Shown: piece by piece, positions 12,001 to 23,405 of the stretch
How the letters are laid out: each line of letters begins with the position of its first letter
Numbering within the stretch: position 1 is the stretch's first letter
Translations under genes and position numbers: made by a program
Notes under the pieces: model-generated
The model's input: the letters and a program-made list of their open reading frames with translations, nothing else
What the model was told of the DNA's origin: nothing
Databases searched by the model: none
Assembly: GCA_041659685.1 (NCBI GenBank)
Contig: JBAZXV010000008.1
Coordinates: 3,332 to 67,331, forward strand
DNA: 64,000 nucleotides
Direction of reading: 5' to 3'
DNA from: Parcubacteria group bacterium
GTDB taxonomy: Bacteria; Patescibacteriota; Minisyncoccia; Moranbacterales; UBA11712

Positions 12001-14763
12001 ATTGGCGTTTTGGTCTGCAGCAGCATTAGTAATTGCTATGGTTGCACCAGAAACTTGAAGATTTCTTGTCGGACTTGTCGTTCCGATGCCGACGTTTCCG
12101 GAGCTTATTATTCGCATCGCTTCCGTTGATGAATAACTTGAGTTAGTTCGTCCAGTTCTAAAAGACAAAAAATTATCGGAAGCAGTGGCGGAACCCGCAA
12201 TATCAATATATCCGCCTACTCCACCATCCTGTAAAAATGACATCTCTTGCGGACGCCCCGTGGTATGCAATACAAAACCAGATTGACCGTTTGTTGCTGT
12301 TGCAGTTAAATCTAGTATTTTATCAGCAGATGAATTTATAGACGCATGGGGGCTCGTCGTCCCGATGCCGACGTTGCCAGTTCTCAAAACAGTAAACACG
12401 TCCACCCCATCACCCAAAGCTTGGTTATTTACTGTGAATCTTCCTTCTGTCGCTCCAGAACCAGCGTTTGTGGAAATACCAGCCGTCACCCATCCAGGCT
12501 TAGTTGCGTGTGAATGGGCAAACAAGTTTATTGCTCCGCCATAACCATTGGAACCAACACCAGCTTGCATCACCAATTGACCCGTGCCCGTGTTGGTATC
12601 AGCAGATTCTCCCATTATTATGTACCTTCTGCTCCCGTCTACTTTTGATAATCTGATATTCCCGTTTACGGACAGCGGGCTGTTCGGCGCTGTCGTTCCG
12701 ATGCCGACGTTGCCGTCATTTTTTATATTCAGGATCGGATTCCCCCATGTTCCTATTTGTATTTGGTTTGTATTGTCCAAATTGCCTACATACATATCCG
12801 TTGCAGTTTGCTGATTGAAAAATATCAGTCCGCCAGAACCGCTTGCATTTGAGTTAAATTCAAGAGTGGCTCCGCTACCCGTCCCTAATTTGGCATTTCC
12901 TGCCACATGCAACAGCGAGCTTGGGCTCGTCGTCCCGATGCCAACGTTGCCCGCTATGTATCCGTTTCCGCTAAGCCACAGGTCTGACCATTTAGCGGTT
13001 GAAACTCCTAAACTTATCATGCCAGTACTAGAAACATAGGGTCTGAAGGCGCCATTAGTTAAAACAACATTGCCCCCATCTGCTCCTCCGTTTGCCTTCA
13101 AGTTGAAGTTTCCGCTTGTCCCCGCTAAAAATGTAAAATCCGGACCAGTTCCATTGGTTGTAATGCTCAATTGCCCTACGCTGTTCACAGCGAATTGGGT
13201 GTAATTTGAAGCATCGTATCCCAATCTTAATTGTTCTGTGGTTTTAAATACATGTAATGCCGCTCCCGGCGCGGTCGTCCCGATGCCGACATTGCCACTT
13301 GCTCCGGCATAGAAAGTTCCGGCGCCATATGCCGCGACTCCTCCGAGATATACATTTCCGGAAGTATCAATTCTGAAGCGAGTGGCTGGCGTTGTGCCGT
13401 CTTCAATAATGAAATTGTCATCTCCTCCGTTCTGTCCCACTCCCATATACCAATTTCGGCTGTCAGTTTGAATGGAAGTATAAGTATTGGCGTCGGCTGT
13501 TCCGCCAACCACCAGTTTATATTGTGGATTCGTTGTCCCGATCCCGACGTTGCCGTTATTTAAAATAACCATTTTTGACCCGTTACTTCCAGTCGAACCA
13601 ACCCTAAAGTCATAACCATAAGAATTTAAAACTAGTGCCTGGTCGCCTGCTCCTCCAATATTGGATATGCCCAAAGTAGCACCAGTATATCCGCTCCTTG
13701 AAAGCTGCATTGAATCATTCCATGCCGAGCCATAAACATCCAACTTCGCCCCCGGCGTCGTTGTTCCGATCCCGAGGTTGCCGTTTTGTAAGATTGTCAT
13801 TGCTTCTGTGCTTCCCATCTGAAAACGCAATCTACCTGCTCCACTTTCCATCATAATACGCCCCGACAAATCATTCATTTGTCCGAAACTCATATAATCA
13901 GCACCAACCAAATCTCCGTTAGAAGCATCGAAATACATCAAACTGTCACCCGAACCCGTATTCGCAATGAGAGTAGTAGTTCCTCCTGCAGATGAATCGC
14001 TTATGGTTAACTTTTGCCCCGGAGTCGCGGTTCCAATCCCGACGTTGCCGCCCGTGAAAGTCGCGGCGTATCCCGTTCCTGACTGAGCGACTTTGAGCGC
14101 CGTACCGGTTCCCCCGCCGGAGCCATACACGACGCTCAAAGCACTGTTTGTCCCGCTCGCGGGATTGTAATTTATATTCGCCGCGTCTTGTGCGGCCCCA
14201 GTGTTGTCGATATCGATGAATCCATCCCCGACCACGTTCAGCGAATTGATGGCTTGGGGAACCGCGCCTAGTCTTTTGCGGGGGGACATTTCCGCGTCTG
14301 AGTCGACCGTCACGCCGAGATAATATGTGTCTTGGTCAAAGTTTAGATTCAATGCATTGCCATTTCCGCTTCCGAGCATCACCGAAAAAATTCCCTTGCT
14401 GACTGCTACTGCGTTCCCGTTCACTGCCGTATACGTCCCGGTCCAGAGGAGATTTCCGTTTTCGGCCGCGTCATACAGCTTGAAAACCATGTCATAGTTC
14501 CCATCCGCCACCGCCACGTTCGAAGTGTTCGTGAGTTTTCCCTGATAATTCATCTGCCGGTTGACCGCCGCTTGAGAGAAGTAGGCAAAGCAAAAAAACC
14601 CGACTGAAACAATCAGCCCCGTTCGAACCACCCGTCCGATTCGTATTATTTTTCCCACTTGCCCCTTCAACCCCATTTTTCCCGTTTCACCCTTTTCATC
14701 CATTTTTTCAGTTTTGTTTCTTGTTTTGTTTCTCACTTGAGATTCAGTTCCCTCGATTCCCAT
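1..14763 (-). CDS. giant secreted/cell-surface protein, >4,900 aa within the window (C-terminus beyond window start): signal/TM segment + GNVGIGTT beta-helix repeats + 5 LamG-like domains + 2 Kelch-like propellers
   Basis: The minus-strand frame whose codon first bases fall on coordinates divisible by 3 is open with no stop at every point translated: 1-1380, 1681-1800, 2341-2460, 2976, 4347, 9135, 12714 and 14521-14763. Translation gives GSIGIGTTSPNEKLTVNG...KLLLHADG...GYMDEVRVSKGTARWTSNFTPP and GNVGIGTTSP motifs. In-frame stops at 14766-14768 and 14773-14775 are followed by in-frame ATGs at 14763, 14703 and 14676. A basic-then-hydrophobic N-terminus (KIIRIGRVVRTGLIVSVGFFCFAY) follows. No complete minus ORF in this frame is listed in the track, consistent with an ORF that leaves the window without a stop. 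Confidence 0.8.
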   Translation of the reverse strand, partial: MGIEGTESQVRNKTRNKTEKMDEKGETGKMGLKGQVGKIIRIGRVVRTGLIVSVGFFCFAYFSQAAVNRQMNYQGKLTNTSNVAVADGNYDMVFKLYDAAENGNLLWTGTYTAVNGNAVAVSKGIFSVMLGSGNGNALNLNFDQDTYYLGVTVDSDAEMSPRKRLGAVPQAINSLNVVGDGFIDIDNTGAAQDAANINYNPASGTNSALSVVYGSGGGTGTALKVAQSGTGYAATFTGGNVGIGTATPGQKLTISDSSAGGTTTLIANTGSGDSLMYFDASNGDLVGADYMSFGQMNDLSGRIMMESGAGRLRFQMGSTEAMTILQNGNLGIGTTTPGAKLDVYGSAWNDSMQLSRSGYTGATLGISNIGGAGDQALVLNSYGYDFRVGSTGSNGSKMVILNNGNVGIGTTNPQYKLVVGGTADANTYTSIQTDSRNWYMGVGQNGGDDNFIIEDGTTPATRFRIDTSGNVYLGGVAAYGAGTFYAGASGNVGIGTTAPGAALHVFKTTEQLRLGYDASNYTQFAVNSVGQLSITTNGTGPDFTFLAGTSGNFNLKANGGADGGNVVLTNGAFRPYVSSTGMISLGVSTAKWSDLWLSGNGYIAGNVGIGTTSPSSLLHVAGNAKLGTGSGATLEFNSNASGSGGLIFFNQQTATDMYVGNLDNTNQIQIGTWGNPILNIKNDGNVGIGTTAPNSPLSVNGNIRLSKVDGSRRYIIMGESADTNTGTGQLVMQAGVGSNGYGGAINLFAHSHATKPGWVTAGISTNAGSGATEGRFTVNNQALGDGVDVFTVLRTGNVGIGTTSPHASINSSADKILDLTATATNGQSGFVLHTTGRPQEMSFLQDGGVGGYIDIAGSATASDNFLSFRTGRTNSSYSSTEAMRIISSGNVGIGTTSPTRNLQVSGATIAITNAAADQNANLFFGKVDGSDGWSIGQGITANDGSFKLYDNQGGKVVMTVEQGNAANTLYLKSDNIGIGTTTPGSKLEVAGQVKITGGTPGLNKVLTSDANGLASWTSVASVGVSSVTNSDGTLTISPTIGDVVASLNLGHANTWTGAQTFSANTYFPGSGIWDTNGNVGIGTTSPGSKLVVVGNESLRGNLVFSSELTERFIMGDTNSGAIRIRGNSSSATDRNVQFGHVDNNGVWESYMTVADGGNVGIGTTAPGMLLHVYGAPTSATMAKFVASSDTRNSIAVYNSSYYNQLGTYASTNTYYAGANSGFISAEAGLSILTNSANPITFATNGSINTGANEWMRITSAGNVGIGTTNPTSKLSFGANSTISTATVDASDSDVLTITGGGVAGNTRGATIYLYGNEHANVGSLILEAGDKSNGNMLFKVNAAQVMTIYQPSAVANTLVLKAGNVGIGTTSPGAKLTVSGGSILLDNEQALTAKDSGGTARQLAYFSSGNNVYIGDNTSAAMTIRSSGDTVIRAGGTNDVLVMTGSGAVANSLYIKQGNVGIGTTSPGAKLEVAGSAFVNGGGLTVYNPTTAQIILNARPTLSDDSSNIILQSSGSATGTYTGRFSVYTNHGSGLWSEKFVVTNQGNVGIGTTNPGAKLDIVGSDNVVTLKLSDYASGGNAQKDAFIAMAHKTDAEEPVALIQGRSDGTNNKVWIGGAGASFNMENAATEIGFFTAANDTTLNGSERMTIRSNGDVTMNGNVGIGTTSPSAKLTVAGDIFPSVDDTYNLGDDTHRWSDLFLGPATLHIGSSTSDEYTLSYNTTANTLGFNVNGTGDPEIVFDSSGNLGLAASAYLNFGTTIGSSGYGIRDNAGILQYKASGGTWTNIGSGSSTSSTAASWSTLTDPSTNLSLPMSAFTTVFNWATGTGTSDLFSLTTDNSANGTGSLLNLQTGASSTVSPLRVRGGSTEALYVNSSGSVGIGTISPNEKLTVNGVMSLAEQASSPSATSGFGKLYATQSGGNDTYTKFLLHADGTGNSFTDSESTPKTITANGDAIQSATQSEFGGKSAYFDGSGDSLSVADSNDWTFGSGDFTVDFWAYSSNFATGTEQEFVAQSNYGSASLTRWVVGADATGHAFANFWTDGTSVTVGITSSNVLSNSNWHHVAWVRNGTSFKLYVDGVERGSGTSSATINDAAQPLTIGMNDYSSNHYYFAGYIDELRVSKGTARWTSAFTPPTQAYNTTGLFYKTAGGTEYELGGSGGGSSFSNLWGQNGTNLYYTSGNIGIGTTSPLAALDMTGGLILRGSNNYLNFGSLTGTNGYGLRDNGGTIEYKNSGGDWATFGAVGGGWTDAGSNVYLSSVSDNVGIGTTTPNEKLTVNGVMSLAEQASSPSATSGYGKLYAMAMTGNDSYTTLLLHADGSGTTFTDSSASAHAMTAGGNSTQSSTQYEFGGKSAYFDGTGGVTTPATADFNFGSGDFTVDFWARVSVVGSYQYFIGDLNSAGNDHEWHFYLDSSNNIVFSTKDTGNILRYVKSTTTVSANTWYHISGVRSGSTLYLFINGTSEVGSGSTTNIGASALKNFVSTNLGIGKLGDYAGNYLNGYMDEVRISKGTARWTSAFTPPTRAYGSGTSLAFKDSSGTETILGSTGGASGLTSPWGTNSSSLYYTGGNVGIGTTSPAAALSVVGNAILSGSSRYLNFGSTSGSSGYGIFDNNGTLQIKNSGGSWTNIPTASASQWTNNGNNIYFTTGSVGIGTTIPNHTFDIAGNLGLSTSAYLNFGATDGGTGYGLRDNAGTLQFKNSSGNWEDIGSGTSTLSWSVLTDPSTNSYLGMGDYSTNLNWTTGTGTSDLFSLTTDNLADGTGSLLNVQTGASSSLSPLRVRAGSTEALYINNSGNVGIGTTAPNEKLTVNGAMSLAESAAAPDVTSGFGKLYAVPLSGNDSYTKLLLHADGTGATFTDSSSSGKTVSAAGTATQSTTQYKFGGESASFSSGYLSTTDSTDWTWDGDFTVDFWFRLNSTTNNFFLTSAGSLPNPSLRIMYDASNGWNLYDGAANHAFSDSLSTGVWYHAAVVRTNGVVKVFRDGAQKGSDWATSATFDMSASGLYIGADWNGGTSFNGYMDEYRISKGIARWTSAFTPPTRAYGSGGVLAYKDSLGTETVLAGASGSGASSLWGQNGTSAYYTSGNVGIGTTAPLAKLDLAGSGILSGLNNYLNFGSTAGTSGYGLRDNNGTMEYKNQSGAWVAIGSGGGGTTSMSMQEDGWADSGSTLPAALYGSQTAVIGDYVYLFGGYNSNIIYRAPVSSPTSWTNTGSTLPGNLGYSQVAIIGDYVYLFGGNIAGTTTNVIYRAPLSNPTSWANTGSTLPGNLDGSQVAIIGDYIYLFGGYNGGGNTNVIYRAPLSNPTSWANTGSTLPTNLTWSQLAVIGDYVYLFGGYGTATIYRAPVSNPTSWASTGSSIPGTLSYSQAMIVGDKIYQLGGYLGSSVYTNVMYSASVSSPTTWTNTGKTLPSNLYLSQVAAVGNYAYLFGGNNGSVGIGTIYRTPILNGGPSLASNASWKYATSSAAGIWTANTNGSIYYTGGNVGIGNNAPNHALDITGNFGLSANGYFNWGTADGTNGYGFRDNAGTLQFKNSGGIWTNLGAGAGSSSWSALTAPSTNLSLNMGTYSSAFNWTTGTGSSDLFSLTTDNSANGTGSLLNLQTGASSTLSPLRIRAGSTEALFAGNTGNVGVGTISPNEKLTVNGNISIAESMNAPDATSGFGKLYAVGGIGGNDSYTKLLLHADGTGATFTDSEATPKTVTAYGNATQSSTQSEFGGKSSYFDGTGDYLSLADSSDFAFGAGDFTVDAWVYLTASTVGHRITVFSIGDKGWGLDQRQEITCGITNNQLDFRAETGSGYAWTTITEGTVPLNQWVHVAYVRSGSSVFGFINGVKTSTSTTSFSFTVNNYIRIGGFYSRGSEYQDDVANYKDEIRVSKGIARWTSNFTPPNQAFDVGKHLAYKDSDGNITALTGGSSGASSQWGTNGSSLYYNSGNVGIGTTAPLAKLDLAGSGILSGLNNYLNFGSTAGNSGYGIRDNNGTMEFRNSNGAWMAMGSSSGTGSTGMKEDEWVDTGATLPGVLAHSQTAVIGDYVYLFGGTNASAATNVIYRAPVSNPTSWTNTGATLPGNLQQSQVAVIGDYVYLFGGVSASAITNVIYRAPVSDPTSWSNTGSTLPGNLQASQVAVIGDYVYLFGGHNGSAYTNVIYRAPVSNPTSWENTGSTIPGNLAYSHVAVIGGYVYLFGGTLNGPVTNVIYRAPVSNPTSWVNTGATLPASIGMSQVAVIGDYVYLLGGYTSGAISTIYRAPVSNPTSWVSSGATLPANLYASQTAVVGGYVYLFGGGNASYNSVIYRAPIYNNGPDLASNSDWKYYATSSTATGVWTANPDGSIYHTGGSVGIGNATPNHALDVIGNIGLAANGYFNWGTADGTNGYGFRDNAGTLQFKNSGGAWTNFGGAGSSTWSALTAPSTALSLNMGTYSTAFNWATGTGTSDLFSLTTDNSANGTGSLLNLQTGASSTVSPLRVRAGSTEALFANSTGSIGIGTTSPNEKLTVNGVMSLAEQTSSPSATSGFGKLYAMSPLAGNDSYTKLLLHADGMGATFTDSSSSAKTVTANGDATQSTTKSEFGGKSAYFDGTGDYVSVPDSDDWDYGSGDFTIDMWVNRNNAGVLDRIIDQWVDTSNYFSVYIDTGNQLNTYLNISGSTVIGFHSTITIPATTWTHIAIVRSGGVVTQYINGVASGTASTNTWSTFAAPVEIGRVVYGPTYFSGYMDEVRVSKGTARWTSNFTPPTRAYGASALAFKDSSGNETVLGSSSSGSGASSLWGQNGSNIYYTSGNVGIGTTSPLAALDLTGSAILRGSNNYLNFGSLTGTNGYGIFDNNGTLQFKNSGGSWTNLGGAGSSTWSALTAPGTSLSLNMGTYSSAFNWATGTGTSDLFSLTTDNGANGTGSLLNLQTGASSTLSPLRVRAGSTEALFANSTGSIGI
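560..1190 (-). other. LamG-like domain 5
   Basis: Directly translated: KLLLHADGMGATFTDSSSSAKTVTANGDATQSTTKSEFGGKSAYFDGTGDYVSVPDSDDWDYGSGDFTIDMWV...GYMDEVRVSKGTARWTSNFTPPTRAY. Confidence 0.7.
2000..2760 (-). repeat. Kelch-like beta-propeller, 5-6 blades
   Basis: Translated blade: TSWSNTGSTLPGNLQASQVAVIGDYVYLFGGHNGSAYTNVIYRAPVSNP. The unit recurs every ~144 nt at about 2021, 2161, 2301, 2445 and 2585. Confidence 0.6.
3085..3745 (-). other. LamG-like domain 4
   Basis: Translation gives KLLLHADGTGATFTDSEATPKTVTAYGNATQ...KDEIRVSKGIARWTSNFTPP. Anchor motifs lie at 3720-3745 and 3111-3135. Confidence 0.6.
4440..5290 (-). repeat. Kelch-like beta-propeller, about 6 blades of about 48 aa
   Basis: A 144-nt periodic DNA repeat is seen at about 4550, 4725, 4855, 5000 and 5145, with the same repeat unit as the 2000-2760 propeller. 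Confidence 0.55.
5630..6235 (-). other. LamG-like domain 3
   Basis: The plus strand reads cgtcagcatgaagaaggagctt (HADG) at about 6205-6235 and ggaggagtgaaagcggaggtccagcg (RWTS.FTPP) at about 5651-5680. Confidence 0.55.
7180..7830 (-). other. LamG-like domain 2
   Basis: The KLLLHADG-encoding segment is at 7801-7830 and the RWTSxFTPP-encoding segment at 7201-7230. Confidence 0.55.
8330..8990 (-). other. LamG/Concanavalin-A-like jelly-roll domain 1 of the giant protein
   Basis: A KFLLHADG-type start sits near 8950-8990 and a DE(V/I)R(V/I)SKG.ARWTSNFTPP end near 8351-8380 (plus-strand ggcggagtgaaagcggaagtccaacg). Confidence 0.6.
9560..14100 (-). repeat. about 16 tandem beta-helix-type repeats (77-117 aa each), each carrying a GNVGIGTT(S/A)P...KL.V.G motif; N-terminal half of the giant protein
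   Basis: The plus-strand motif ccgat(g/c/t)ccgac(g/a)ttgcc (reverse complement GNVGIG) recurs at about 9768, 10120, 10375, 10662, 10965, 11278, 11516, 11828, 12082, 12362, 12698, 12930, 13280, 13535, 13765 and 14030. All copies are in the same frame. Confidence 0.7.
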
Positions 14764-14786
14764 TTTTTATTTCTAAATATTTTTGA

Positions 14787-14815: not shown

Positions 14816-15238
14816 TTATTTCGGAACCACTGTCACTGATCCCACTTCCTCCGGATTATCCGCGTGAATTATGAGGTTATTATTTGCATCTTTCTCAACT
14901 TTAATATCGCTTTCCGAATTGATTCCCCGATAATTCCAGGAAATTATCACAAGTATGAAAATTGCAACCAGCACAACAGCCCATTTGAGATTGAGAACGG
15001 CTTTTTTTTGCTCAAAGGCCGGGATATTTGCGTTTAGTGATTCCTGCCGGCGATAGTTCGCCTCCGCTACCCGATCGGTGTATTTTTCAACCGTTTCTTT
15101 CGTCGTAAACCACTTGCCGTCTTTTTTAAATCCCTCCAATTTTCCTTTTCTCACCAAAAGACTCAGATAGTCCGCGCTATAAGGAGAATTTTTACTGGCT
15201 TCTTGCAGTGTAATTAGATTTTTTTCTTCAGCTCCCAT
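14816..15238 (-). CDS. membrane-tethered DNA-binding protein: N-terminal excisionase/MerR-like HTH, one TM helix, short extracytoplasmic tail
   Basis: LITLQEASKNSPYSADYLSLLVRKGKLEGFKKDGKWFTTKETVEKY resembles an HTH_17-type motif, followed by a hydrophobic WAVVLVAIFILVIISW segment. The gene is co-oriented with and 52 nt upstream of the giant gene. Confidence 0.55.
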   Translation of the reverse strand: MGAEEKNLITLQEASKNSPYSADYLSLLVRKGKLEGFKKDGKWFTTKETVEKYTDRVAEANYRRQESLNANIPAFEQKKAVLNLKWAVVLVAIFILVIISWNYRGINSESDIKVEKDANNNLIIHADNPEEVGSVTVVPK

Positions 15239-15348: not shown

Positions 15349-15376
15349 CCCACTTAGACACTCAGTGTCTAAGTGG
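15349..15376. repeat. REP-like palindrome type 1 (ccaCTTAGAcactcagtgTCTAAGtgg); overlaps the RAYT stop codon
   Basis: A perfect 27-nt palindrome. Its reverse complement recurs at 15817-15841. Confidence 0.7.
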
Positions 15377-16019
15377 ATTCATCTGATTTTTCCATAAATT
15401 CAACATCCCCTTTTCGCCTCAAGATGGCCTCAAGAGACATTTTTGAAAACTCTTCATATTCCTTGAAATTTGGAAATTGATCGCAAATTATACTTTTCTC
15501 GCAAAAGCCGGTTTTTCGCCACTTTTCGTATTCGGACCAGCTACTCAGGAAAATCCCACCAACATCTTCCATTTTATGCACTTTATAGTTCAAATTGACA
15601 TAAGTTGAGGCGTAAAGCAACTGTTTATTGGTTTTAATATGGACTGACTGGAAAGGGCCCTGAAAAAGCACTCCATTCCTCTTATGCCTGTGATTGAAAT
15701 ATTTCGTATACCCGTTTCCGATTTTGTGCATAAATTTTTCAATTCCTTTATCTGAAACTTGCTCAAGAATCAGATGATAATGGTTCGGATTGAGACAAAA
15801 ACACACTATATTTACCCACTTAGACACTGAGTGTCTAAGTGACTTATTCTTGTGAAAAGAGCTGACATAGATACCGCCATATGATTCAACCCGATTGAAT
15901 TCAGACATACTCTGCAAAAATCGGGAAATGTCTTTTTTATCGAGAAAAACAGGTCTTTTCTCAACACCTCGGTTATAGACATGATAGTACTCTCCGTTTA
16001 CTAATTGCACTTTTCTCAT
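15369..16019 (-). CDS. HUH (Y1) tyrosine transposase, IS200/RAYT-like
   Basis: 216 aa. GEYYHVYNRG N-terminus, HUH motif NPNHYHLIL and a Tyr region GNGYTKYFNHRH. A paralog lies at 22688-23347. Confidence 0.7.
   Translation of the reverse strand: MRKVQLVNGEYYHVYNRGVEKRPVFLDKKDISRFLQSMSEFNRVESYGGIYVSSFHKNKSLRHSVSKWVNIVCFCLNPNHYHLILEQVSDKGIEKFMHKIGNGYTKYFNHRHKRNGVLFQGPFQSVHIKTNKQLLYASTYVNLNYKVHKMEDVGGIFLSSWSEYEKWRKTGFCEKSIICDQFPNFKEYEEFSKMSLEAILRRKGDVEFMEKSDEST
15817..15841. repeat. REP-like palindrome type 1, inverted copy, lying inside the RAYT coding sequence (encodes SLRHSVSKW)
   Basis: cacttagacactGagtgtctaagtg is the exact reverse complement of the 15349 copy. The paralog at 22688 lacks this segment. 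Confidence 0.65.
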
Positions 16020-16029
16020 AGAGTCTTTG

Positions 16030-16995
16030 CTACTTAGAAGCTCCGCTTCTAAGTGAAATTTTGTAGCGCCTCAAAAACCACCACCAGATTCCGGCAAGTG
16101 CCAGGACTGCGAGAAGCTCTTTCCACGGAACCAAAAAAATGAATTTTTGAAATTTCATATTTCGTCCCTCCCCGTCCTTGATGTTTCCAGATATTTTATA
16201 GAGCCCGAGAAAGTCCTTCCTCTGAATATCCTCTGAAAAAACACGACTGGTTGTCGGAAGAATTGTCCGGTCTTTTATTTCCAGTCTGCCAATTTCCCGC
16301 CCAAAAATGTTTTTCACTGACACTTCCCCCTCCGGCTTAAAATGAGAATTTCCTTCGTTTGCAATTTCAATTTCCAAATTTGATTTATCGGTAAAAGAAA
16401 TTCTGGGCAATTCTACTTTTTTCAGAATGCCTTTTTTCACCGCGTTTCCGCCGGCTTGCACCAGAAACAGCACTCCCGCCCGGCCAGACACGCAAACACT
16501 TGATTTATCCGTCCAAACTACATTTTTATCTTCTTCAATATTGCATCGGGTCCGAAAGAAAATTACCCCGTAATGTCCGCCGAGATTAGCATCCTCTGGC
16601 GCCCTGATCTTATAATCAACAACCTTATTTTTTCCCTTTTCTAAGCTAAAATTATCCTCGTCAACCGAAAGCCATTTGCTCATGAGATAAGGCCTTAATT
16701 CATCGTTCGCAATGTCCCTGCCGCCGGTAAAAATATATTTTCCGGCATCGTCCATAAAAAAATCGGAAAACTCGACCGCAATATCAAGATTTTGATCAGA
16801 ATTGTTTCCGACATAAATTTTTCCTGTTTTTTCTTCCCCTGGATTGATTTCGAGATCAAAATAGAGCGGCGACACCGTGAGTGAAACCGGCCCTTCGGCA
16901 TGAGAAAAAGAAACTGGAAAAAAGAGACTGACCAAAACAATCAGCCCCAACGCCGCTATTCTTCCTGCCTGCCATATTTTTCTCATCCGCCTCAT
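16030..16995 (-). CDS. secreted protein with C-terminal TM anchor plus basic tail; DUF916/DUF3324-like (CscA-like) architecture
   Basis: 321 aa. Signal peptide (IAALGLIVLVSLFFPVSFSHA), GGHYGVIFF motif and a C-terminal LAVLALAGIWWWFLRRYK segment. Paralog of the 17000-17995 gene. Confidence 0.5.
   Translation of the reverse strand: MRRMRKIWQAGRIAALGLIVLVSLFFPVSFSHAEGPVSLTVSPLYFDLEINPGEEKTGKIYVGNNSDQNLDIAVEFSDFFMDDAGKYIFTGGRDIANDELRPYLMSKWLSVDEDNFSLEKGKNKVVDYKIRAPEDANLGGHYGVIFFRTRCNIEEDKNVVWTDKSSVCVSGRAGVLFLVQAGGNAVKKGILKKVELPRISFTDKSNLEIEIANEGNSHFKPEGEVSVKNIFGREIGRLEIKDRTILPTTSRVFSEDIQRKDFLGLYKISGNIKDGEGRNMKFQKFIFLVPWKELLAVLALAGIWWWFLRRYKISLRSGASK
16031..16056. repeat. REP-like palindrome type 2 (tACTTAGAAGCtccgCTTCTAAGTg); supplies the last codons and stop of the DUF916-like gene
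   Basis: The minus strand reads ...SLRSGASK* from this palindrome. Its inverted copy is at 58065-58089. Confidence 0.65.
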
Positions 16996-16999
16996 TATA

Positions 17000-17995
17000 C
17001 TATTCTTTTTTCTTTATCTCAAACTTCGAGAAGAAATATTTAAACAAGTAGTATATGATAATAAATATCAGGATAACCAGGATTGCAACGTGCCACGGAA
17101 AAGCATAAAAAACCAGACTCTCCTGGTCCTTAAGGTTTCCGCCAAAGCCATAAAAAACGGTGAGGTCGGCTGTATAGCGCCCGACCAGCCACTTTTTCGC
17201 CCATTCAGTCTCCTGTCTGCGGGATGAATCCGAAAGCACCACCCACTCCTTTATTGGCAAATGTGCTACTTCCGCCCCAAAGATATTTTTTATAGCCACT
17301 TCTCCTTTTACTCTCTGATAAACATTTCCGGTATTTCTGAAAACCGTGCTGAAATCCACCGGACCGTTGCGATAGAAAATTTTACCGGCTTTGAATTCCG
17401 TGATCTCCCCAGACTCAACATTGTTTCCGGCCACATTGATGAGAACCAAAAGCCCCACGCGGCTCACAAGCCTCACCTTATCTTTTCCGCCCGAAGAATT
17501 ATCGCTTGAAACAGAGACAAATATAGCGGCATAGTGACTCCCCGTCCTTGCCCCCTCGGGAACTTTGACTTCAAAAGGCAGAGACAAGCGGTCTCCGTGA
17601 TTAAGATTCACCTCGTTGATTTCCGGAGTTATCCAGTCTCTTGCCGAAGTGGCAGCCGCATAATCTCCTCCTAAAAAAACGGTTGCCTTTTCCGGGTCTT
17701 GCGAACCCACAAAGTCTTCTTTATCGATTTTAAAATCGGCTGTCCTTCCAAGGCGATTTACCACCACCATTCGCTGGCTGGACGATTCTCCCGGCGCAAG
17801 CGTGAGCTCAAGATTAACAGGAGAAATAACAAACCGGTCTTCAACATTTTCCTGATAATTTTCAATAGTATAGGCTTTTGCTGATCCGGCAATTCCAAAC
17901 ATCAAAAAAAAGCCACAAAATAAGAGTAGCCATGAAAATATCGTCTTTCCCGTGAAACAACCTTTAATAATTGGTTTAATAATTCCGGAGATCAT
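17000..17995 (-). CDS. secreted protein with C-terminal TM anchor; DUF916/DUF3324-like paralog
   Basis: 331 aa. Signal/TM segment, TGSHYAAIFV motif (compare GGHYGVIFF in the paralog) and a C-terminal HVAILVILIFIIIYYLFKYFFSKFEIKKKE. Confidence 0.5.
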   Translation of the reverse strand: MISGIIKPIIKGCFTGKTIFSWLLLFCGFFLMFGIAGSAKAYTIENYQENVEDRFVISPVNLELTLAPGESSSQRMVVVNRLGRTADFKIDKEDFVGSQDPEKATVFLGGDYAAATSARDWITPEINEVNLNHGDRLSLPFEVKVPEGARTGSHYAAIFVSVSSDNSSGGKDKVRLVSRVGLLVLINVAGNNVESGEITEFKAGKIFYRNGPVDFSTVFRNTGNVYQRVKGEVAIKNIFGAEVAHLPIKEWVVLSDSSRRQETEWAKKWLVGRYTADLTVFYGFGGNLKDQESLVFYAFPWHVAILVILIFIIIYYLFKYFFSKFEIKKKE

Positions 17996-18066
17996 TAATT
18001 TTCAAGTATCAATTTCCCGATAAATTTTCAACGCAATAATTTTCAAAATTTAAAAAATTGAAAATC

Positions 18067-18690
18067 CTATAATGTTGTTGCCGTCGCTGTGACAGTTGAT
18101 GCGTAAGCGCCGGTCGGCTGGAGCTTTGAAGATCCGACCTCAGCCTTGAAAGTTACCGTCGTGCTGTCACCGGCGGTTTCGGCGGAATTGTGAGACACCT
18201 GCTCTTTTGTTGTGCTGTTAAAACCCATATATTTATCCACTCCAAATTTCGTTTCGACATAGCTTCCGGTCGCGCCAAAGCCGAATTCCGCGGCGCTGGG
18301 CGCGACTAGCCAGGCTTCCGGAGTGCCATCCGCCGTTTCGCTGTAATCGGCAAAAACATCGCTTCCGCTATGCATTGTACTGGCCTGGTCCGTGTTCACC
18401 TCTAATTTCCACCCGGCAGAGTTGTTTGTTGTCACCGTCCAGGTGGTTGAACCCGTCGAAGAGCCCGTGCCGGTAATATCCGGCGCCATTGTCACATCAG
18501 ACGGCGTGTTGAGACTAATGGTAGCCAGGACATTCAAGTTAACAACAACGCTATCCGTAGTTTGAGCGGCATCCGATACCGCAGGCTCAAGAGCTGAAAA
18601 TCCCATTATCAGCACAAAAAGACCGGCCAGCGAAAAAGCTGCCGCCCTTAAAAAGTTTTTTCCAAATTTATTTTTATTTTCCTCTGTCAC
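18067..18690 (-). CDS. small secreted beta-rich surface protein, WxL-domain-like
   Basis: 207 aa. N-terminal hydrophobic segment. ITGTGSSTGSTTWTVTTNNSAGWKLEV resembles the D.RGTG.GW.V motif of WxL domains. C-terminus is TGAYASTVTATATTL. Confidence 0.45.
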   Translation of the reverse strand: MTEENKNKFGKNFLRAAAFSLAGLFVLIMGFSALEPAVSDAAQTTDSVVVNLNVLATISLNTPSDVTMAPDITGTGSSTGSTTWTVTTNNSAGWKLEVNTDQASTMHSGSDVFADYSETADGTPEAWLVAPSAAEFGFGATGSYVETKFGVDKYMGFNSTTKEQVSHNSAETAGDSTTVTFKAEVGSSKLQPTGAYASTVTATATTL

Positions 18691-18732
18691 TAAAATTATT
18701 TTACTTGGTGCAATTATTATATATCAAACGTT

Positions 18733-18832
18733 TTTTCCTGCAAAGGAAAAGTTATCCACAGAATTGAATAAATTTATTATATAATAAATATTTTTTTCCT
18801 GCAAAGGAAGAATTATCCACAATTCCTTTTAG
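18733..18832. repeat. about 38-bp direct repeat x2 (ttttttcctgcaaaggaa.a.TTATCCACA.aatt), each containing a perfect DnaA-box 9-mer; lies upstream of the 18067-18690 gene
   Basis: Copies are at about 18733-18770 and 18794-18832. A third TTATCCACA is at 15339-15347. Confidence 0.4.
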
Positions 18833-18842
18833 CTAAGCCGCC

Positions 18843-19550
18843 TTAAAGATTCGTGGCCGTTGCCGTGATTGTCGCCGTGTACGTGCCCAACGGCTGACTG
18901 TGGCCGGATCCGGATTCGGCCTTAAAATTTATCGTCGTGTCGTCTCCGGTACCCTCGCTGGGGGCATTCCGGTGCGCCGCTTGAATCCGATTCGCTCCGT
19001 TAAATCCCAGATATTTATCACCCGAAAAACCGGCTTCGGCATATGTCCCGGAAGAATTGAAACCAAATTCACTGTCAGCCGCCGCCACAGACCACTCTTC
19101 AGGCGTTCCGGACACCGCTTCATCGTAGTCCGCAAATGAATTTCCTCCGCTTGTCAGCGCCGGCGAGGCACTCGCATTCACTTCAAGTTTCCATCCGTCC
19201 GGGTCATTCGTTTCCACGTTCCAGGTAACGCTTCCGGAAGTCGATCCCGCTTCCTCGATTTCCGGAGATAGGGAGACATCGGCGGGCGAATTGAGACTCA
19301 CTGCCGAAACAACCGTAACGCTGACGGTCACCGAGTCCGATGAGTCTCCCGCCACGAGACCATCGATGCTTTCAAGATAGCTAAAAAATAAAATCGAAGA
19401 AAGCGCCAAGAGAACAATTCCGAGCATCGAAAAAAACTCTATTTCAAAAAGAAAAATCCGCCGTTTATTTTTCGGCAAATGGCTGTAGTATAAACCGAAT
19501 TTCTCAATCAGACTTTTGGGTCTTCTTTTTTTTGTTTTTCTTTTCATCAA
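18843..19550 (-). CDS. small secreted beta-rich surface protein, WxL-domain-like paralog
   Basis: 235 aa. VTWNVETNDPDGWKLEVN motif and C-terminal GTYTATITATATNL. The real start is probably internal, near MLGIVLLALSS. Confidence 0.45.
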   Translation of the reverse strand: MMKRKTKKRRPKSLIEKFGLYYSHLPKNKRRIFLFEIEFFSMLGIVLLALSSILFFSYLESIDGLVAGDSSDSVTVSVTVVSAVSLNSPADVSLSPEIEEAGSTSGSVTWNVETNDPDGWKLEVNASASPALTSGGNSFADYDEAVSGTPEEWSVAAADSEFGFNSSGTYAEAGFSGDKYLGFNGANRIQAAHRNAPSEGTGDDTTINFKAESGSGHSQPLGTYTATITATATNL

Positions 19551-19594
19551 ATCATGTTATTCCTATTGCCTTAGCGGCTTTATTTTGCTCCGCG

Positions 19595-20299
19595 TCAGAT
19601 CGTTCCCACCGCAGTATATGTAATCGTGCAGGAATAAGCGCCTGATTTCTGATCCGAAGGAACATCCGCCTTATATCCGATCACCGTTTCGTCAGCTTCG
19701 CTCTTGTAACCTCTCTTTGCATGTGCAGTCTCGGCCACATCCGGAAAAGCGGCGTATTTATAGTTCGGATTTTCTCCCCATTTCGCGTCCACGCCGGTTC
19801 CGGAAATAACGGTGAAGCCGAAACCCAGATTGTTCGGCGCTGACCAAAGGAGCGGCGTCGCGATTGTTCCACTATGGTCGTCAATAGTCGTCACCCCGTC
19901 CGTGTGGCGCATTTTGTGATCCTTGGAAACATTGAGCGAATAGCCGTCCCATGAGTCGGTTGTCACGGTAACCGTACTTTGCCCCGTCACCGGACTTCCC
20001 GCGAGCAGAGACCCTAAATCTTTAGTGTGGCTGTCAACCGTTAAAGTGAGATAGGTGTTTACCATATACCAAAATCCGGCATTCATCTTGTATGTTCCGC
20101 TCGCGCTTTCTCCGGTCGCAATTTCGCCCAAGGTATCATTCAGTTTATATGTTTCGGAACTGCTTGCCGCTCCCCCGAAGTTAATCGAATCAGCATTGAT
20201 CTTATAGCTTCCGCTTGACATTTGGGAGAGACAACCGCCGGCTGACAAAAAGAAAAATACGGCTAGGGAAAATATTTTAAAGACAACAAGTTTACTCAT
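19595..20299 (-). CDS. small secreted, possibly lipid-anchored, beta-rich surface protein; third paralog
   Basis: 234 aa. Signal segment with a lipobox-like LSAGGC. C-terminus GAYSCTITYTAVGTI parallels the other two paralogs. Confidence 0.45.
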   Translation of the reverse strand: MSKLVVFKIFSLAVFFFLSAGGCLSQMSSGSYKINADSINFGGAASSSETYKLNDTLGEIATGESASGTYKMNAGFWYMVNTYLTLTVDSHTKDLGSLLAGSPVTGQSTVTVTTDSWDGYSLNVSKDHKMRHTDGVTTIDDHSGTIATPLLWSAPNNLGFGFTVISGTGVDAKWGENPNYKYAAFPDVAETAHAKRGYKSEADETVIGYKADVPSDQKSGAYSCTITYTAVGTI

Positions 20300-21233: not shown

Positions 21234-22710
21234 TTATCGGCTAAAGAGCAAAAATAAAGAAACAATAATCGCAAACGCCATAAATCCCACTGCCAGCCAT
21301 CCGAAAAATTTTACCCAAAAAGGATGCGTTTCCTTCCCCATCACGCGCTTGTCATTTCCAATTATCATTATGACAGCAAGAAGCGGCAAGGCAATAATTC
21401 CGTTTAAATAAGCTGAATAGTAGAGAGCTTTAATGGGATTAATATGGAGGAAATTGAGTCCCAACCCCACCAAAATCGAAAGAGCGATAACCATATAAAA
21501 ATCCTTTTGCCCGGGAAAACTTAAGTTCAAGCCCTTCGTGCCATTTCATCACTTCGGAAAGCGCATAAGCGCCGGATCCGGCAAGAATGGGAATAGCCAG
21601 AAGGCCGGTCCCGATGATGCCGATAGCGAAAAGAAGGTAGGAGGCTTCGCCCGCAAGAGGCCGGAGAGCCAGGGCCGCCTGATCGGCTGAATCAATGGTT
21701 GTTATTCCGTTCTTGAAAAGTACCTGGGCGGTAGTAAGGACGATAAAAAAGAAAACCACATTGGCAAGAATCATTCCCGTTCCCACATCGGTCCGCATAT
21801 GCGAAATCCGGCAGTGCATGGAGGATCTTCTTTCCTGTTCGCTCAAAAGCTTATTTTCTTCCACTTCTTCCGACGTCTGCCAGAAAAAAAGATAGGGCGT
21901 GACAGTCGTTCCGAAAACGGCAATCATGGCAAAAATATAATTTTCGCTGAATCTGATATTTGGAATGAAAGCGTTCTCAAAAACTTCCCGCCAGTCAGGA
22001 TGAATCAAAAATCCGGTGACAATATAGGCGAAAACGGCAATCGTAAGCCACTTCAGAAATTTGACATAGGTCCGATAGCGAAAGAATATTTCAAGAAAAA
22101 CGATAAGAAGAGCGAAAAAAAGAGATGCCGCGCTGATATTGGCGCCCGTCACCAAATTCAGCGACGCCGCCATCGCCCCGAGGTCCGCCCCGATATTCAC
22201 GACATTGGCAACAATGAGAAGAAGCACGATAGCCCCCATGGTTTTCTTGTTGAATCTTCCGCCCAGAACCTTGGTCAAACCTTTATTTGTCACAATTCCT
22301 ATCCGGGCGCAAACTTCCTGAACCGCAAGCATGACCGGAAGAAGCCAAACCGCCATCCAAAGAATCGAAAAACCGAACATGGCGCCGACCGCCGAATAAG
22401 TTCCGATGCCGGAGGGGTCATCATCGGAAGCTCCCGTAATGAGCCCGGGGCCCAGAGCTTTTACATACAACGCAAATTTTTTTCTGGGGTTTCGGACCAG
22501 ATTCTTTACTTTAACAACGTCCGCCTCGGTTATTCGCAATGTCCCGTCGACCAGTTTTACCGCCTCTACCTCGCCCCACACAATCATTTTTTTTGCAATC
22601 ACAAGAGGAATTCCGGCTTCGCGGCGAAATTCGGAAACTGTATGCAGCTTGCCTTTCTTGACCCTAGAGTTCGACTCTAGGGTTGCGTTATTCGAGTAAA
22701 TATTTTTCAT
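21234..22710 (-). pseudogene. mntH: Nramp-family divalent metal transporter (MntH) with an apparent +1 frameshift near 21440-21530; N-terminal HTH-like extension
   Basis: ORF 21439-22710 carries GASDDDPSGIGTYSAVGAMFGFSILW and ends ...VMKWHEGLELKFSRAKGF. ORF 21234-21530 in the +1 frame continues with the Nramp C-terminal TMs (FYMVIALSILVGLGL...FGWLAVGFMAFAIIV). The 92-nt overlap contains runs tttt/ccc/ggg/aaaa/ttttt. Confidence 0.6.
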
Positions 22711-23405
22711 CCTCTTTTTTATTTTTCATGTAAACAGCGTTTTCAAAAATAAATTTTTTAAAATCAGTATAATCTTTGAACTGATTCATTATGACTTTCT
22801 TGTTGCAAAGCCCCTTTTTTCTTTTTCCAAGATAATCCGGAAAACTTGAGTACTTCCATTCTTTCTCTTTATATCCATGAATATAATGATTCAAATTCAC
22901 GTAAGCCGCAAGATAAAGCAATTTAGAATTTGATTTTATATGAACTCTCTTAAATTTCCCCTGAAACAGAGCGCCCGACCTGCTATTTCTTGTATTAAAA
23001 TAATTAGTATGACTCGTTCCGATTTTGTGCATTAATTTTTCTATTCCATTATTGACTAATTGCTTTACGATCAAATGATAATGATTTGGATTTAGACAAT
23101 AACATATAAACTCGACTAGTTTTTTTCGTTTTTTTTTCAATAATGGAAAATCAGAAAGCTCAGCCTCAGGATTGTTGTCTTTATAATCCCTCCAGGCGAT
23201 CATGAGTCCGTCATCTTGATTATTCAGCAGGTTCATCGACAGCTTAAACCTTTCAAAATCCCGCTTGTCCTGAAAAATTTTTCTCTTGTCCACTCCTCTG
23301 TTATACAGGTGGTAATATTCACCGTTTGTAAATTCAATTTTTCTCATTTTATTTTACCCTAGTACCCTAGAGTCTAGAGTCGAACTCTAGGGTTGCGTTA
23401 TTCGA
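22662..23405 (-). mobile_element. IS200-like (TnpA-only) element: Y1 transposase gene bracketed by a direct repeat TCGAATAACGCAACCCTAGAG-loop-CTCTAG(GG) containing hairpins
   Basis: Left copy is at 22662-22695 (ccctagagTTCGActctaggg + ttgcgttattcga). Right copy is at 23365-23405 (ctagagTCGAActctaggg + ttgcgttattcga). The repeat supplies TCGAATAA stop codons for both glmS (VTVE*) and the transposase (YLLE*). Confidence 0.6.
22688..23347 (-). CDS. HUH (Y1) tyrosine transposase, IS200/RAYT-like paralog
   Basis: 219 aa. GEYYHLYNRG, NPNHYHLIV and HTNYFNTRN motifs. Its last 7 codons overlap the first 7 codons of the mntH ORF as called. Confidence 0.7.
   Translation of the reverse strand: MRKIEFTNGEYYHLYNRGVDKRKIFQDKRDFERFKLSMNLLNNQDDGLMIAWRDYKDNNPEAELSDFPLLKKKRKKLVEFICYCLNPNHYHLIVKQLVNNGIEKLMHKIGTSHTNYFNTRNSRSGALFQGKFKRVHIKSNSKLLYLAAYVNLNHYIHGYKEKEWKYSSFPDYLGKRKKGLCNKKVIMNQFKDYTDFKKFIFENAVYMKNKKEDEKYLLE

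Follow-up and report, generated by a model that had tools for sequence, protein, structure and literature searches.

Five consecutive open reading frames (ORFs) occupy positions 16030-20299 on the minus strand of the window, the 64,000-nucleotide stretch of contig JBAZXV010000008.1 from a Parcubacteria group bacterium that was analysed here. They encode two paralogue sets of secreted proteins, which probably build a thin surface fibre: an usher-less, chaperone-assisted assembly whose subunits are joined by donor-strand exchange and which would represent a single-domain variant of the Pam pilus of the Candidate Phyla Radiation (CPR). CPR bacteria live attached to other microbes. The fibre would probably function in attachment to a host or to a surface. 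At present, the database annotation of the cluster genes reads 'hypothetical' or 'DUF916'. The five genes, with the lengths of their products in amino acids (aa), are:

19595-20299, minus strand: PamT-like subunit, 234 aa; proposed tip or initiator
18843-19550, minus strand: single-domain paralogue of the 207-aa pilin, 235 aa when read from its TTG, although translation may begin further in
18067-18690, minus strand: single-domain pilin, 207 aa, candidate major subunit; GTG start
17000-17995, minus strand: membrane-anchored core chaperone, 331 aa; paralogous to the 321-aa protein
16030-16995, minus strand: second chaperone/WxLIP-family paralogue, 321 aa; DUF916 (WxLIP_PGBD) domain

The intergenic gaps, in the same order, are 44, 152, 71 and 4 nucleotides. 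According to BLASTP, the 321- and 331-aa proteins share 26% identity over 276 aa (E 3e-29). Among the three small proteins, the 207- and 235-aa proteins are the closest pair (45% identity over 209 aa, E 3e-61). The 234-aa protein is 27% identical to the 235-aa protein over 229 aa (E 1e-10) and 34% identical to the 207-aa protein over 130 aa, in the C-terminal half only (E 6e-15). An N-terminal hydrophobic segment of the signal type is present in all five proteins, and a C-terminal hydrophobic helix with a basic tail is found in the 321- and 331-aa proteins only. An earlier note, made from the DNA sequence alone, had recognised the five consecutive secreted proteins and their two paralogue sets; all five ORFs lie where it had placed them, and the paralogy is real. 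Its interpretation of the cluster as a Csc-like complex of WxL proteins and their DUF916/DUF3324 partners is partly supported: the half that concerns the WxLIP family is right, and the half that concerns WxL is not.

The two membrane-anchored proteins

The 331-aa protein consists of a signal peptide, two β-sandwich domains, a transmembrane (TM) helix (residues 303-318) and a basic tail. The second β-domain of the 321-aa protein is likewise followed by a TM helix (residues 294-308) and a basic tail. The signal peptide, TM helix and basic tail that had been noted for this pair are thus present in both proteins, and the accompanying G(G/S)HY(G/A).IF motif is found in them as LGGHYGVIFF and TGSHYAAIFV.

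In a search with profile hidden Markov models (HMMs), of the kind that the earlier note had proposed for the five proteins, the 321-aa protein matches Pfam family PF06030 (DUF916, now WxLIP_PGBD) with 41.9 bits, above the cutoff of 27.3. Its existing NCBI name is 'DUF916 domain-containing protein'. The 331-aa protein has no Pfam match of its own. PF06030 is matched by 14 of 34 CPR homologues at E<=0.01, and PF11797 (DUF3324) by neither of the two proteins and by none of the 34. A profile of the 321-aa orthologues and the 331-aa paralogue (alignment A2), run against the PDB, finds EfmWxLIP1 (9i25_C, 9i1y_A) with an E of 1e-6. Nine genuine Firmicute WxL clusters from plasmids, with their nine WxLIPs, served as the comparison set. 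The alignment of the 34 diverse CPR homologues (A5), which takes in the 331-aa protein, matches these nine WxLIPs with an hhalign probability of 98.3% (E 2.5e-14, 269 columns), and the match runs collinearly through both β-domains and the TM helix.

The AlphaFold2 (AF2) model of the 321-aa protein, with a predicted local distance difference test score (pLDDT) of 86.4, has two β-sandwich domains and a C-terminal helix at residues 291-310. Its best Foldseek matches in the PDB are the Enterococcus faecium WxLIP entries 9i25_C and 9i1y (E 4e-12), followed by RbmA and then by the chaperones of chaperone-usher systems, CfaA, Caf1M, CsuC, FimC, DraB, SafB and FaeE. PDB entry 9i25 is the E. faecium locus A WxLIP bound to a long WxL protein. 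WxLIP carries a hairpin which is disordered in the isolated protein and which AF2 predicts to contribute a strand completing the WxL β-sandwich (PMC10599100). The model of the 321-aa protein has a low-confidence loop at the same position (residues ~150-171, with a pLDDT below 50 at residues 159-163). This loop is flanked by the near-invariant Cys151 and Cys168, and residues 150-179 are encoded at 16459-16548.

The two ~325-aa proteins are demonstrably members of the DUF916/WxLIP family. Their assignment to the CscA-like architecture (DUF916, DUF3324 and a TM helix) is therefore supported by PF06030, by hhalign and by the fold matches to WxLIP, with the caveat that PF11797 was never matched directly. 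In the common three-gene clusters described below, the single chaperone is orthologous to the 331-aa protein (32-37% identity) rather than to the DUF916-positive 321-aa protein (24-29%). The 321-aa protein may be a second chaperone, or a terminator or anchor.

The three small proteins

The Pam pilus, published in 2026 from a single cultivated species of Saccharimonadia, is the first CPR pilus that is not of type IV (bioRxiv 10.64898/2026.03.03.709456). Electron cryo-microscopy of the PamA and PamB filaments of Ca. Mycosynbacter amalyticus revealed donor-strand exchange between the subunits. The tip subunit PamT has a single truncated immunoglobulin-like (Ig) domain without a donor strand, the two chaperones PamC and PamD resemble FimC/PapD and carry a TM helix at the C-terminus, and PamR is a tether; there is no usher and no trans-envelope machine (same preprint). 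The statement in the earlier note that a module of this kind does not appear to have been described for this lineage is thus partly outdated. The NCBIfam collection of June 2026 includes models of a 'CPR-type pilus'.

In the 234-aa protein, the signal peptide precedes a conserved N-terminal module of ~52 aa (residues 28-79) with three repeats of the S.(S/T)YK.N type. The pilin domain is C-terminal, and an N-terminal donor strand is lacking. NCBIfam model NF058579 (PamT) matches it over model positions 9-130 of 241 with an E of 3.8e-15 (55.9 bits, cutoff 240), and NF058581 (Pam_pilin_C) with an E of 3e-4 (20.8 bits, cutoff 55). All ten syntenic homologues tested also match PamT (E 2e-8 to 2e-18, 34-67 bits). 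The Pam_pilin_C match runs end to end (~1-147 of 148) in three of these eleven proteins, the other two being those of related loci L014 (27.4 bits) and L010 (18.9 bits), and the 207- and 235-aa proteins do not match this model. The match to PamT, although far below the cutoff, amounts to significant homology. The pilin HMM matches the 234-aa protein at positions 67-203 only. In the PamT-like class as a whole this match begins at positions 46-67, and the alternating-hydrophobic segment of the other subunits, described below, is absent, its place being taken by a conserved module of ~55 aa. When the class was compared with the small pilins by hhalign as a positive control, the probability was 100% (E 1.6e-46), over the shared domain only. 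The grouping of the three small proteins into one set therefore holds for their common C-terminal domain, and the 234-aa protein has a different N-terminal half. Lipoprotein anchoring was considered for this subunit and rejected because the Cys in its signal peptide is not conserved.

The mature pilins of the window are single-domain proteins of ~165 aa. In the 207-aa pilin, the signal peptide is followed by a predicted N-terminal donor strand, DSVVVNLNVLATISL (residues 46-60, encoded at 18511-18555), and by an Ig-like body that ends exactly at the C-terminus in GAYASTVTATATTL (18070-18111). The 235-aa pilin has a candidate donor strand, DSVTVSVTVVSAVSL (residues 72-86, 19293-19337), and the conserved C-terminal strand GTYTATITATATNL at 18846-18887; the pilin HMM matches it at positions 8-205. 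Throughout a set of 107 small pilins, the predicted signal-peptidase site (A-A) is followed, at a distance of a few residues, by a segment of the form x-D-x-V-x-V-x-L-x-V. The strongly hydrophobic fraction at profile positions 39, 41, 43 and 45 is 0.90, 1.0, 0.76 and 0.97, respectively; between them, positions 42 and 44 are polar and position 40 is mixed. Such alternation matches the pattern of the N-terminal extensions of chaperone-usher pilins. In the AF2 model of the 207-aa monomer, residues 39-57 lie outside any sheet.

The last strand is the most conserved part of the domain in all subunit classes, and the pilin domain ends within three residues of the protein C-terminus in all 134 cases with a complete profile end. 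The pilin domains of chaperone-usher systems and the WxL domains are likewise C-terminal. The small pilins (alignment A1) also have a conserved Glu-Pro at the end of the hydrophobic region of the signal peptide, ~5-6 residues before the predicted A-A site, which a particular signal peptidase may recognise.

No Pfam family covers the three small proteins, and searches of PDB sequences with the pilin and PamT-like profiles found nothing. The fold matches of the pilin include CupE, CfaB, CS20, the PapG pilin domain, FimG and AggA. Cannulae subunits, TasA and the archaeal bundling pilin are matched as well, the chaperone-usher pilins scoring at least as well as the TasA-like proteins. The NCBIfam model TafC, a subunit of haloarchaeal Tat-dependent fimbriae, is matched by five of 59 family members (A3), with a best E of 9e-15.

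The earlier note had likened the three small proteins to WxL domains on the strength of their motifs. GWKLEV and an extreme C-terminal G.Y..T.TATAT are indeed present in the 207- and 235-aa proteins, and weaker versions of both occur in the 234-aa protein. The place of the first WxL motif is taken by G-W-K-L-E-V in the former two and by G-Y-S-L in the latter. At the second motif, genuine WxL proteins have Y...(L/I/V)TW.L...P near the C-terminus; the corresponding strand here is Y..T.TATATTL, in which neither a Trp nor a WxL occurs. PF13731 (WxL) is matched by none of the three proteins at E<=1 and by none of the 59 family members at E<=0.01. The hhalign probability of the small-protein alignment against 15 genuine WxL domains is 2.3%, with the last strand alone aligned, and that of the PamT-like class against the WxL alignment is 0.4%. 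A greedy run with a larger alignment is collinear over 178 columns at a probability of 1.7%; in this forced alignment G(W/Y).L.V is paired with the first of the two WxL motifs and Y.(T)T.T with the other. Chain 9i25_A, the solved WxL structure, belongs to the searched PDB set but is not among the pilin fold matches listed. Membership of the small proteins in the WxL family was rejected on the basis of Pfam, three hhalign runs and two fold searches, though a very remote relationship is conceivable. A WxL gene cluster has been defined by the presence, within four genes, of one or more WxLIPs and two or more WxL proteins (PMC10599100); the window has two WxLIP-family genes, and their partner genes do not count as WxL.

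These results bear on the possibility that the cluster encodes a true Csc/WxL-type complex, in which the small proteins would bind peptidoglycan without polymerising and would be held on the wall by the DUF916/DUF3324 proteins as a static platform. Such a complex is unlikely. The lack of a PF13731 match, the low hhalign probabilities and the position of 9i25_A outside the best fold matches all argue against it, even though the chaperone-like proteins are bona fide members of the WxLIP family and the forced alignment is collinear with both WxL motif positions superposed. Furthermore, the order of a small subunit, a WxLIP-like protein and an N-terminally extended subunit that has the shared domain at its C-terminus mirrors the small WxL-WxLIP-large WxL layout of Firmicutes (clusters L003, L004, L006, L007 and L009). 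However, the distribution of the conserved alternating-hydrophobic N-terminal strand, present in two subunits and missing from the third, meets a requirement of polymerising systems that does not exist for a static complex, and the match to PamT is also at odds with a static platform.

Gene order, proposed assembly and neighbouring genes

The pilin domain has relatives in ~1,378 representatives at 50% identity (E<=0.001), found by a profile search of 1.84 billion representatives. The synteny sample comprises 49 further loci (numbered with the prefix L) scanned with local HMMs. A chaperone gene adjoins the pilin gene or genes in 37 of the 40 metagenomic loci that have enough flanking DNA, and in the remaining three the locus stops shortly after the pilin genes. 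Most often the order is pilin-chaperone-PamT-like (15 loci as called, plus truncated versions), and five loci have two pilins-chaperone-PamT-like. The type found in the window, PamT-like-pilins-two chaperones, is shared by the close relatives L010, L014 and L015, with L011 as a variant. The closest relative, on a 138-kb JGI contig, has the same order: GlmS-Nramp-BacA-233-234-207-207-324-328 (PF06030)-216-140-giant (5157 aa). No usher gene is seen among the neighbours in the window or in this relative.

Conservation of the gene order helps to weigh two further explanations. One holds that the small proteins form matrix fibres without chaperones, of the TasA, archaeal bundling-pilus or cannula kind, and that the membrane proteins serve, say, in anchoring or adhesion. 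Proteins of this kind do appear among the fold matches, where the chaperone-usher pilins are at least their equals. The nearly constant presence of an adjoining gene with a chaperone fold makes this explanation quite improbable, as does the resemblance of that fold to proteins that bind subunits (WxLIP bound to WxL; CfaA, Caf1M and FimC), which points to a dedicated partner. The other takes the five for unrelated secreted paralogues that do not assemble with one another, such as surface proteins subject to antigenic variation, with a generic Ig-like resemblance; it is very improbable indeed. Ig-like β-sandwiches do yield many weak fold matches, and the fold scores of the pilins are moderate. 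Against this stand the conservation of the gene order across at least 40 loci, the significant sequence links to WxLIP and PamT, and the class-specific presence or absence of the N-terminal strand.

Among the 150 best listed representatives, 34 are large (300-2461 aa), and 33 of these have the pilin domain at their extreme C-terminus. Adhesive modules are therefore often fused directly to the pilin domain. The domains upstream of it include Laminin_G_3, DUF2341, Kelch and cadherin-like domains, among others. Some of the large proteins have the strand region, comparable to the linker and C-terminal domain of PamA, and others lack it, comparable to two-domain tip adhesins.

Three observations on individual loci may be added. 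At L059 (6001-8095), a 167-aa pilin gene and a chaperone gene of the 331-aa type (437 aa, with a long cytoplasmic tail) are found in an NCBI metagenome-assembled genome named Thermoleophilia bacterium; the contig measures 291 kb, and the 12.5-kb locus has 54% G+C. If the binning of this contig is right, the sequence would indicate that the system is not confined to CPR. The divergent locus L012 (5538-11116, Dojkabacteria, 598-kb contig) has two chaperone-like genes on opposite strands, a 401-aa protein with a weakly PamT-like N-terminus (E 4e-6), and unassigned proteins of 419 and 178 aa. It was considered as a bridge to canonical Pam operons and rejected, its similarity to PamT being no more than weak. 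At L037 (3751-6069), L038 (10512-12830) and L058 (2834-5029), the PamT-like gene is directly followed by a gene for a Wzy_C/O-antigen-ligase-like membrane protein with TPR, an assignment based on a Pfam run on the L037 copy. Its presence may point to O-glycosylation of the pilins. Glycan-like density has been reported on Ser356 of PamA (bioRxiv 10.64898/2026.03.03.709456).

By combining the above results with what is known of donor-strand exchange systems, it is possible to outline how the fibre might be assembled. All five proteins would be exported by Sec. The two ~325-aa proteins would then be held in the membrane by their C-terminal helices, leaving their two Ig-like domains on the outside. 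As WxLIP and the chaperones of the PapD/FimC type do, they would insert a β-strand into the open groove of each newly exported subunit, and this strand is probably provided by the hairpin that follows the GGHYG.IF strand. Because the PamT-like 234-aa protein has no donor strand, it could only accept one and would start the fibre at its distal tip. The 235- and 207-aa pilins would insert their N-terminal D.V.V.L.V strand into the groove of the preceding subunit, beside the conserved C-terminal strand. Insertion of the donor strand would displace the chaperone, and the fibre would elongate in this way. The base of the fibre would be kept at the membrane by a chaperone paralogue, and the 321-aa protein is the candidate for such an anchor or terminator. 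As a general idea, the dedicated attachment or surface-assembly module proposed in the earlier note is reasonable.

Several points weigh against this reading of the cluster. Donor-strand exchange, the order of the subunits and the anchoring of the fibre are all deduced from homology, and residues 39-57, left unpaired in the AF2 model of a monomer, are no proof of a free donor strand. The scores of the Pam models lie far below their curated cutoffs (at most 66.6 of 240 bits for PamT and 27.4 of 55 bits for Pam_pilin_C). No Pam chaperone model in NCBIfam matches the two chaperones or their homologues, and their likeness to the PamC and PamD of M. amalyticus is one of architecture and fold. The nine-strand β-sandwich domain at the N-terminus of PamA, PamB and PamE is absent from the pilins of the window, and no PamR-like tether is recognised here.

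Other features of the locus are:

18691-18842, minus strand: gap preceding the 207-aa pilin gene, with two promoter-like elements in tandem
1-14766, minus strand: giant secreted protein, at least 4921 aa; a neighbour, with an open frame running off the window edge
15369-16019 and 14816-15238: two small genes between the cluster and the giant ORF

The 152-nucleotide gap at 18691-18842 contains two tandem copies of a ~60-nucleotide element, each with one promoter-like site on the minus strand (TTTGCA-18-TATAAT at 18805-18776 and TTTGCA-17-TATAAT at 18744-18716). In a promoter and terminator scan of the region, the total of promoter-like sites was not above shuffle expectation, and the tandem elements are therefore a hint only. 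They could represent a dedicated strong promoter for the major 207-aa subunit.

The giant ORF had been described as lying next to the cluster. It is nearby, but it is not directly adjacent because two small genes intervene. The 4921 aa encoded in the window contain five Laminin_G_3 domains, Kelch and Laminin_G_1/2. Judged against the 5157-aa homologue in the closest relative, ~240 C-terminal residues lie beyond the window edge. The part encoded in the window has no detectable pilin domain, and the homologues found with its last 500 residues are all LamG proteins of less than 900 aa. Large ORFs (1,100 to more than 2,100 aa) are found a few kb downstream in ~10 of the related loci, so that the co-occurrence with giant LamG proteins, for which the earlier note had proposed a survey, recurs in position while the domains differ: LamG and H-lectin in L014, a surface Ig-like domain in L043, and, in L030 and L041, 'tail-fibre-like' domains of the YadA-head and/or Peptidase_S74 kind. 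The complete large neighbours in L014 (2176 aa), L030 (1625 aa), L041 (1612 aa) and L043 (2002 aa) have no detectable pilin domain, and a fused pilin domain is therefore not expected, although conceivable, on the giant protein of the window. The giant protein is thus a neighbour whose co-location with the cluster recurs, and a physical link between the two is at most a candidate. The distal part of its gene (window positions 1-10000) has 52% G+C versus 41-46% for most of the window, due either to the composition of the repeats or to a foreign origin.

The genes at 15369-16019 (216 aa) and 22688-23347 (219 aa), both on the minus strand, are paralogous and resemble IS200/Y1 transposases (Y1_Tnp, E 8e-5). 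They bracket the Nramp-BacA-pilus block. Since 216-aa ORFs sit at the corresponding places in the closest relative, the two genes have the appearance of residents of the locus, perhaps domesticated, and not of active insertion sequences. The Nramp gene (21234-22710, minus strand) appears to be broken into two overlapping ORFs of 423 and 98 aa, where the relative has a single Nramp of 477 aa; the break reflects a frameshift, a pseudogene or faulty assembly.

Comparison with known assembly systems

The closest counterpart of the cluster is the Pam system. Both belong to CPR hosts, and the parts of the window cluster, like those of Pam, would be exported by Sec. The two paralogous two-domain chaperones of the window agree in architecture and fold with the published Pam chaperones, which are FimC/PapD-like, have a C-terminal TM helix and work with no usher. 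The window also has a ~235-aa tip-type subunit that lacks a donor strand and matches PamT, its truncated Ig-like pilin domain is located at the C-terminus, and large 'tail-fibre-like' proteins are encoded nearby in some of the loci. Unlike the Pam pilins, the pilins of the window are single-domain proteins with the donor strand at the very N-terminus, and no ATP-synthase neighbourhood was seen. The layout of the major Pam pilins is approached by some of the large relatives, which have N-terminal domains followed by the strand region and the C-terminal domain, the profile match starting at positions 22-37. With single-domain pilins, and with three genes in most of the related loci, the Parcubacteria version is much smaller than Pam.

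The WxL/Csc systems of Firmicutes (PMC10599100, PMC9772566) share with the cluster a homologous WxLIP membrane protein, which is its best fold match, and a WxLIP strand that is predicted to complete the WxL β-sandwich. The layout of the clusters is similar, the common subunit domain is always C-terminal, and both families have 'small' members and 'large' members with adhesive N-terminal domains. However, Pfam, hhalign and fold search all fail to identify the subunit domain of the window as WxL. The two Trp-x-Leu motifs are absent as such, GWKLEV being kept and the C-terminal strand having T-A-T-A rather than T-W-x-L. PF11797 is not matched directly, and there is no small LPXTG partner. WxL proteins have been described as bound to peptidoglycan and not as fibres.

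Among the long-studied systems, the chaperone-usher pili (Pap/Fim, CFA/I and the archaic Csu/CupE) have the closest folds of both subunit and chaperone. They also share the N-terminal extension with alternating hydrophobic residues, the strictly C-terminal pilin domain and a tip without a donor strand. They differ in that here there is no outer membrane and no usher, and in that the chaperones are anchored by a TM helix rather than soluble. The likeness does not extend to sequence, as neither the cluster proteins nor the sampled homologues match a PapD or fimbrial Pfam family. The fibres of TasA/TapA, the archaeal bundling pili, the Tat-fimbriae TafA/C/E, cannulae and the pond fibril TLP-1 are mostly formed without a dedicated two-domain chaperone, whereas here a chaperone gene almost always adjoins. 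Two further types of pili were considered and rejected. Unlike those of sortase pili, the subunits carry neither LPXTG nor a TM tail, their last residues being TATATTL or TAVGTI, and no sortase gene is seen among the syntenic neighbours. The signal peptides have long h-regions with small residues at -3/-1 (SDA|A, VAG|D) and lack the G-F-x-x-x-E of type IV pilins.

The presence of a DUF916/WxLIP chaperone gene beside a PamT-like gene joins two literatures that do not cite each other; the Pam preprint makes no mention of WxL, WxLIP, DUF916 or DUF3324 (bioRxiv 10.64898/2026.03.03.709456). The WxLIP-family chaperones thus link the CPR pilus with the WxL/Csc clusters that have long been a puzzle in lactobacilli, enterococci and Listeria, and provide a testable hypothesis for how those clusters act, namely by strand complementation of the chaperone type. 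It is tempting to go one step further and to regard the Firmicute WxL/Csc clusters, CPR Pam and the module described here as branches of one ancient usher-less chaperone-subunit system of single-membrane envelopes, although this proposal is tentative and rather doubtful. If it were true, the role of conserved chaperone would fall to the WxLIP/PamC-D-like protein, with the C-terminal subunit domain as its fast-evolving client. The WxL proteins would also be complemented by a donor strand and would perhaps polymerise. The chaperone-usher pathway of Gram-negative bacteria would then be a diderm elaboration of the same principle, and the three-gene unit of pilin, chaperone and PamT-like subunit, as it is found in most of the loci, would be its simplest living form.

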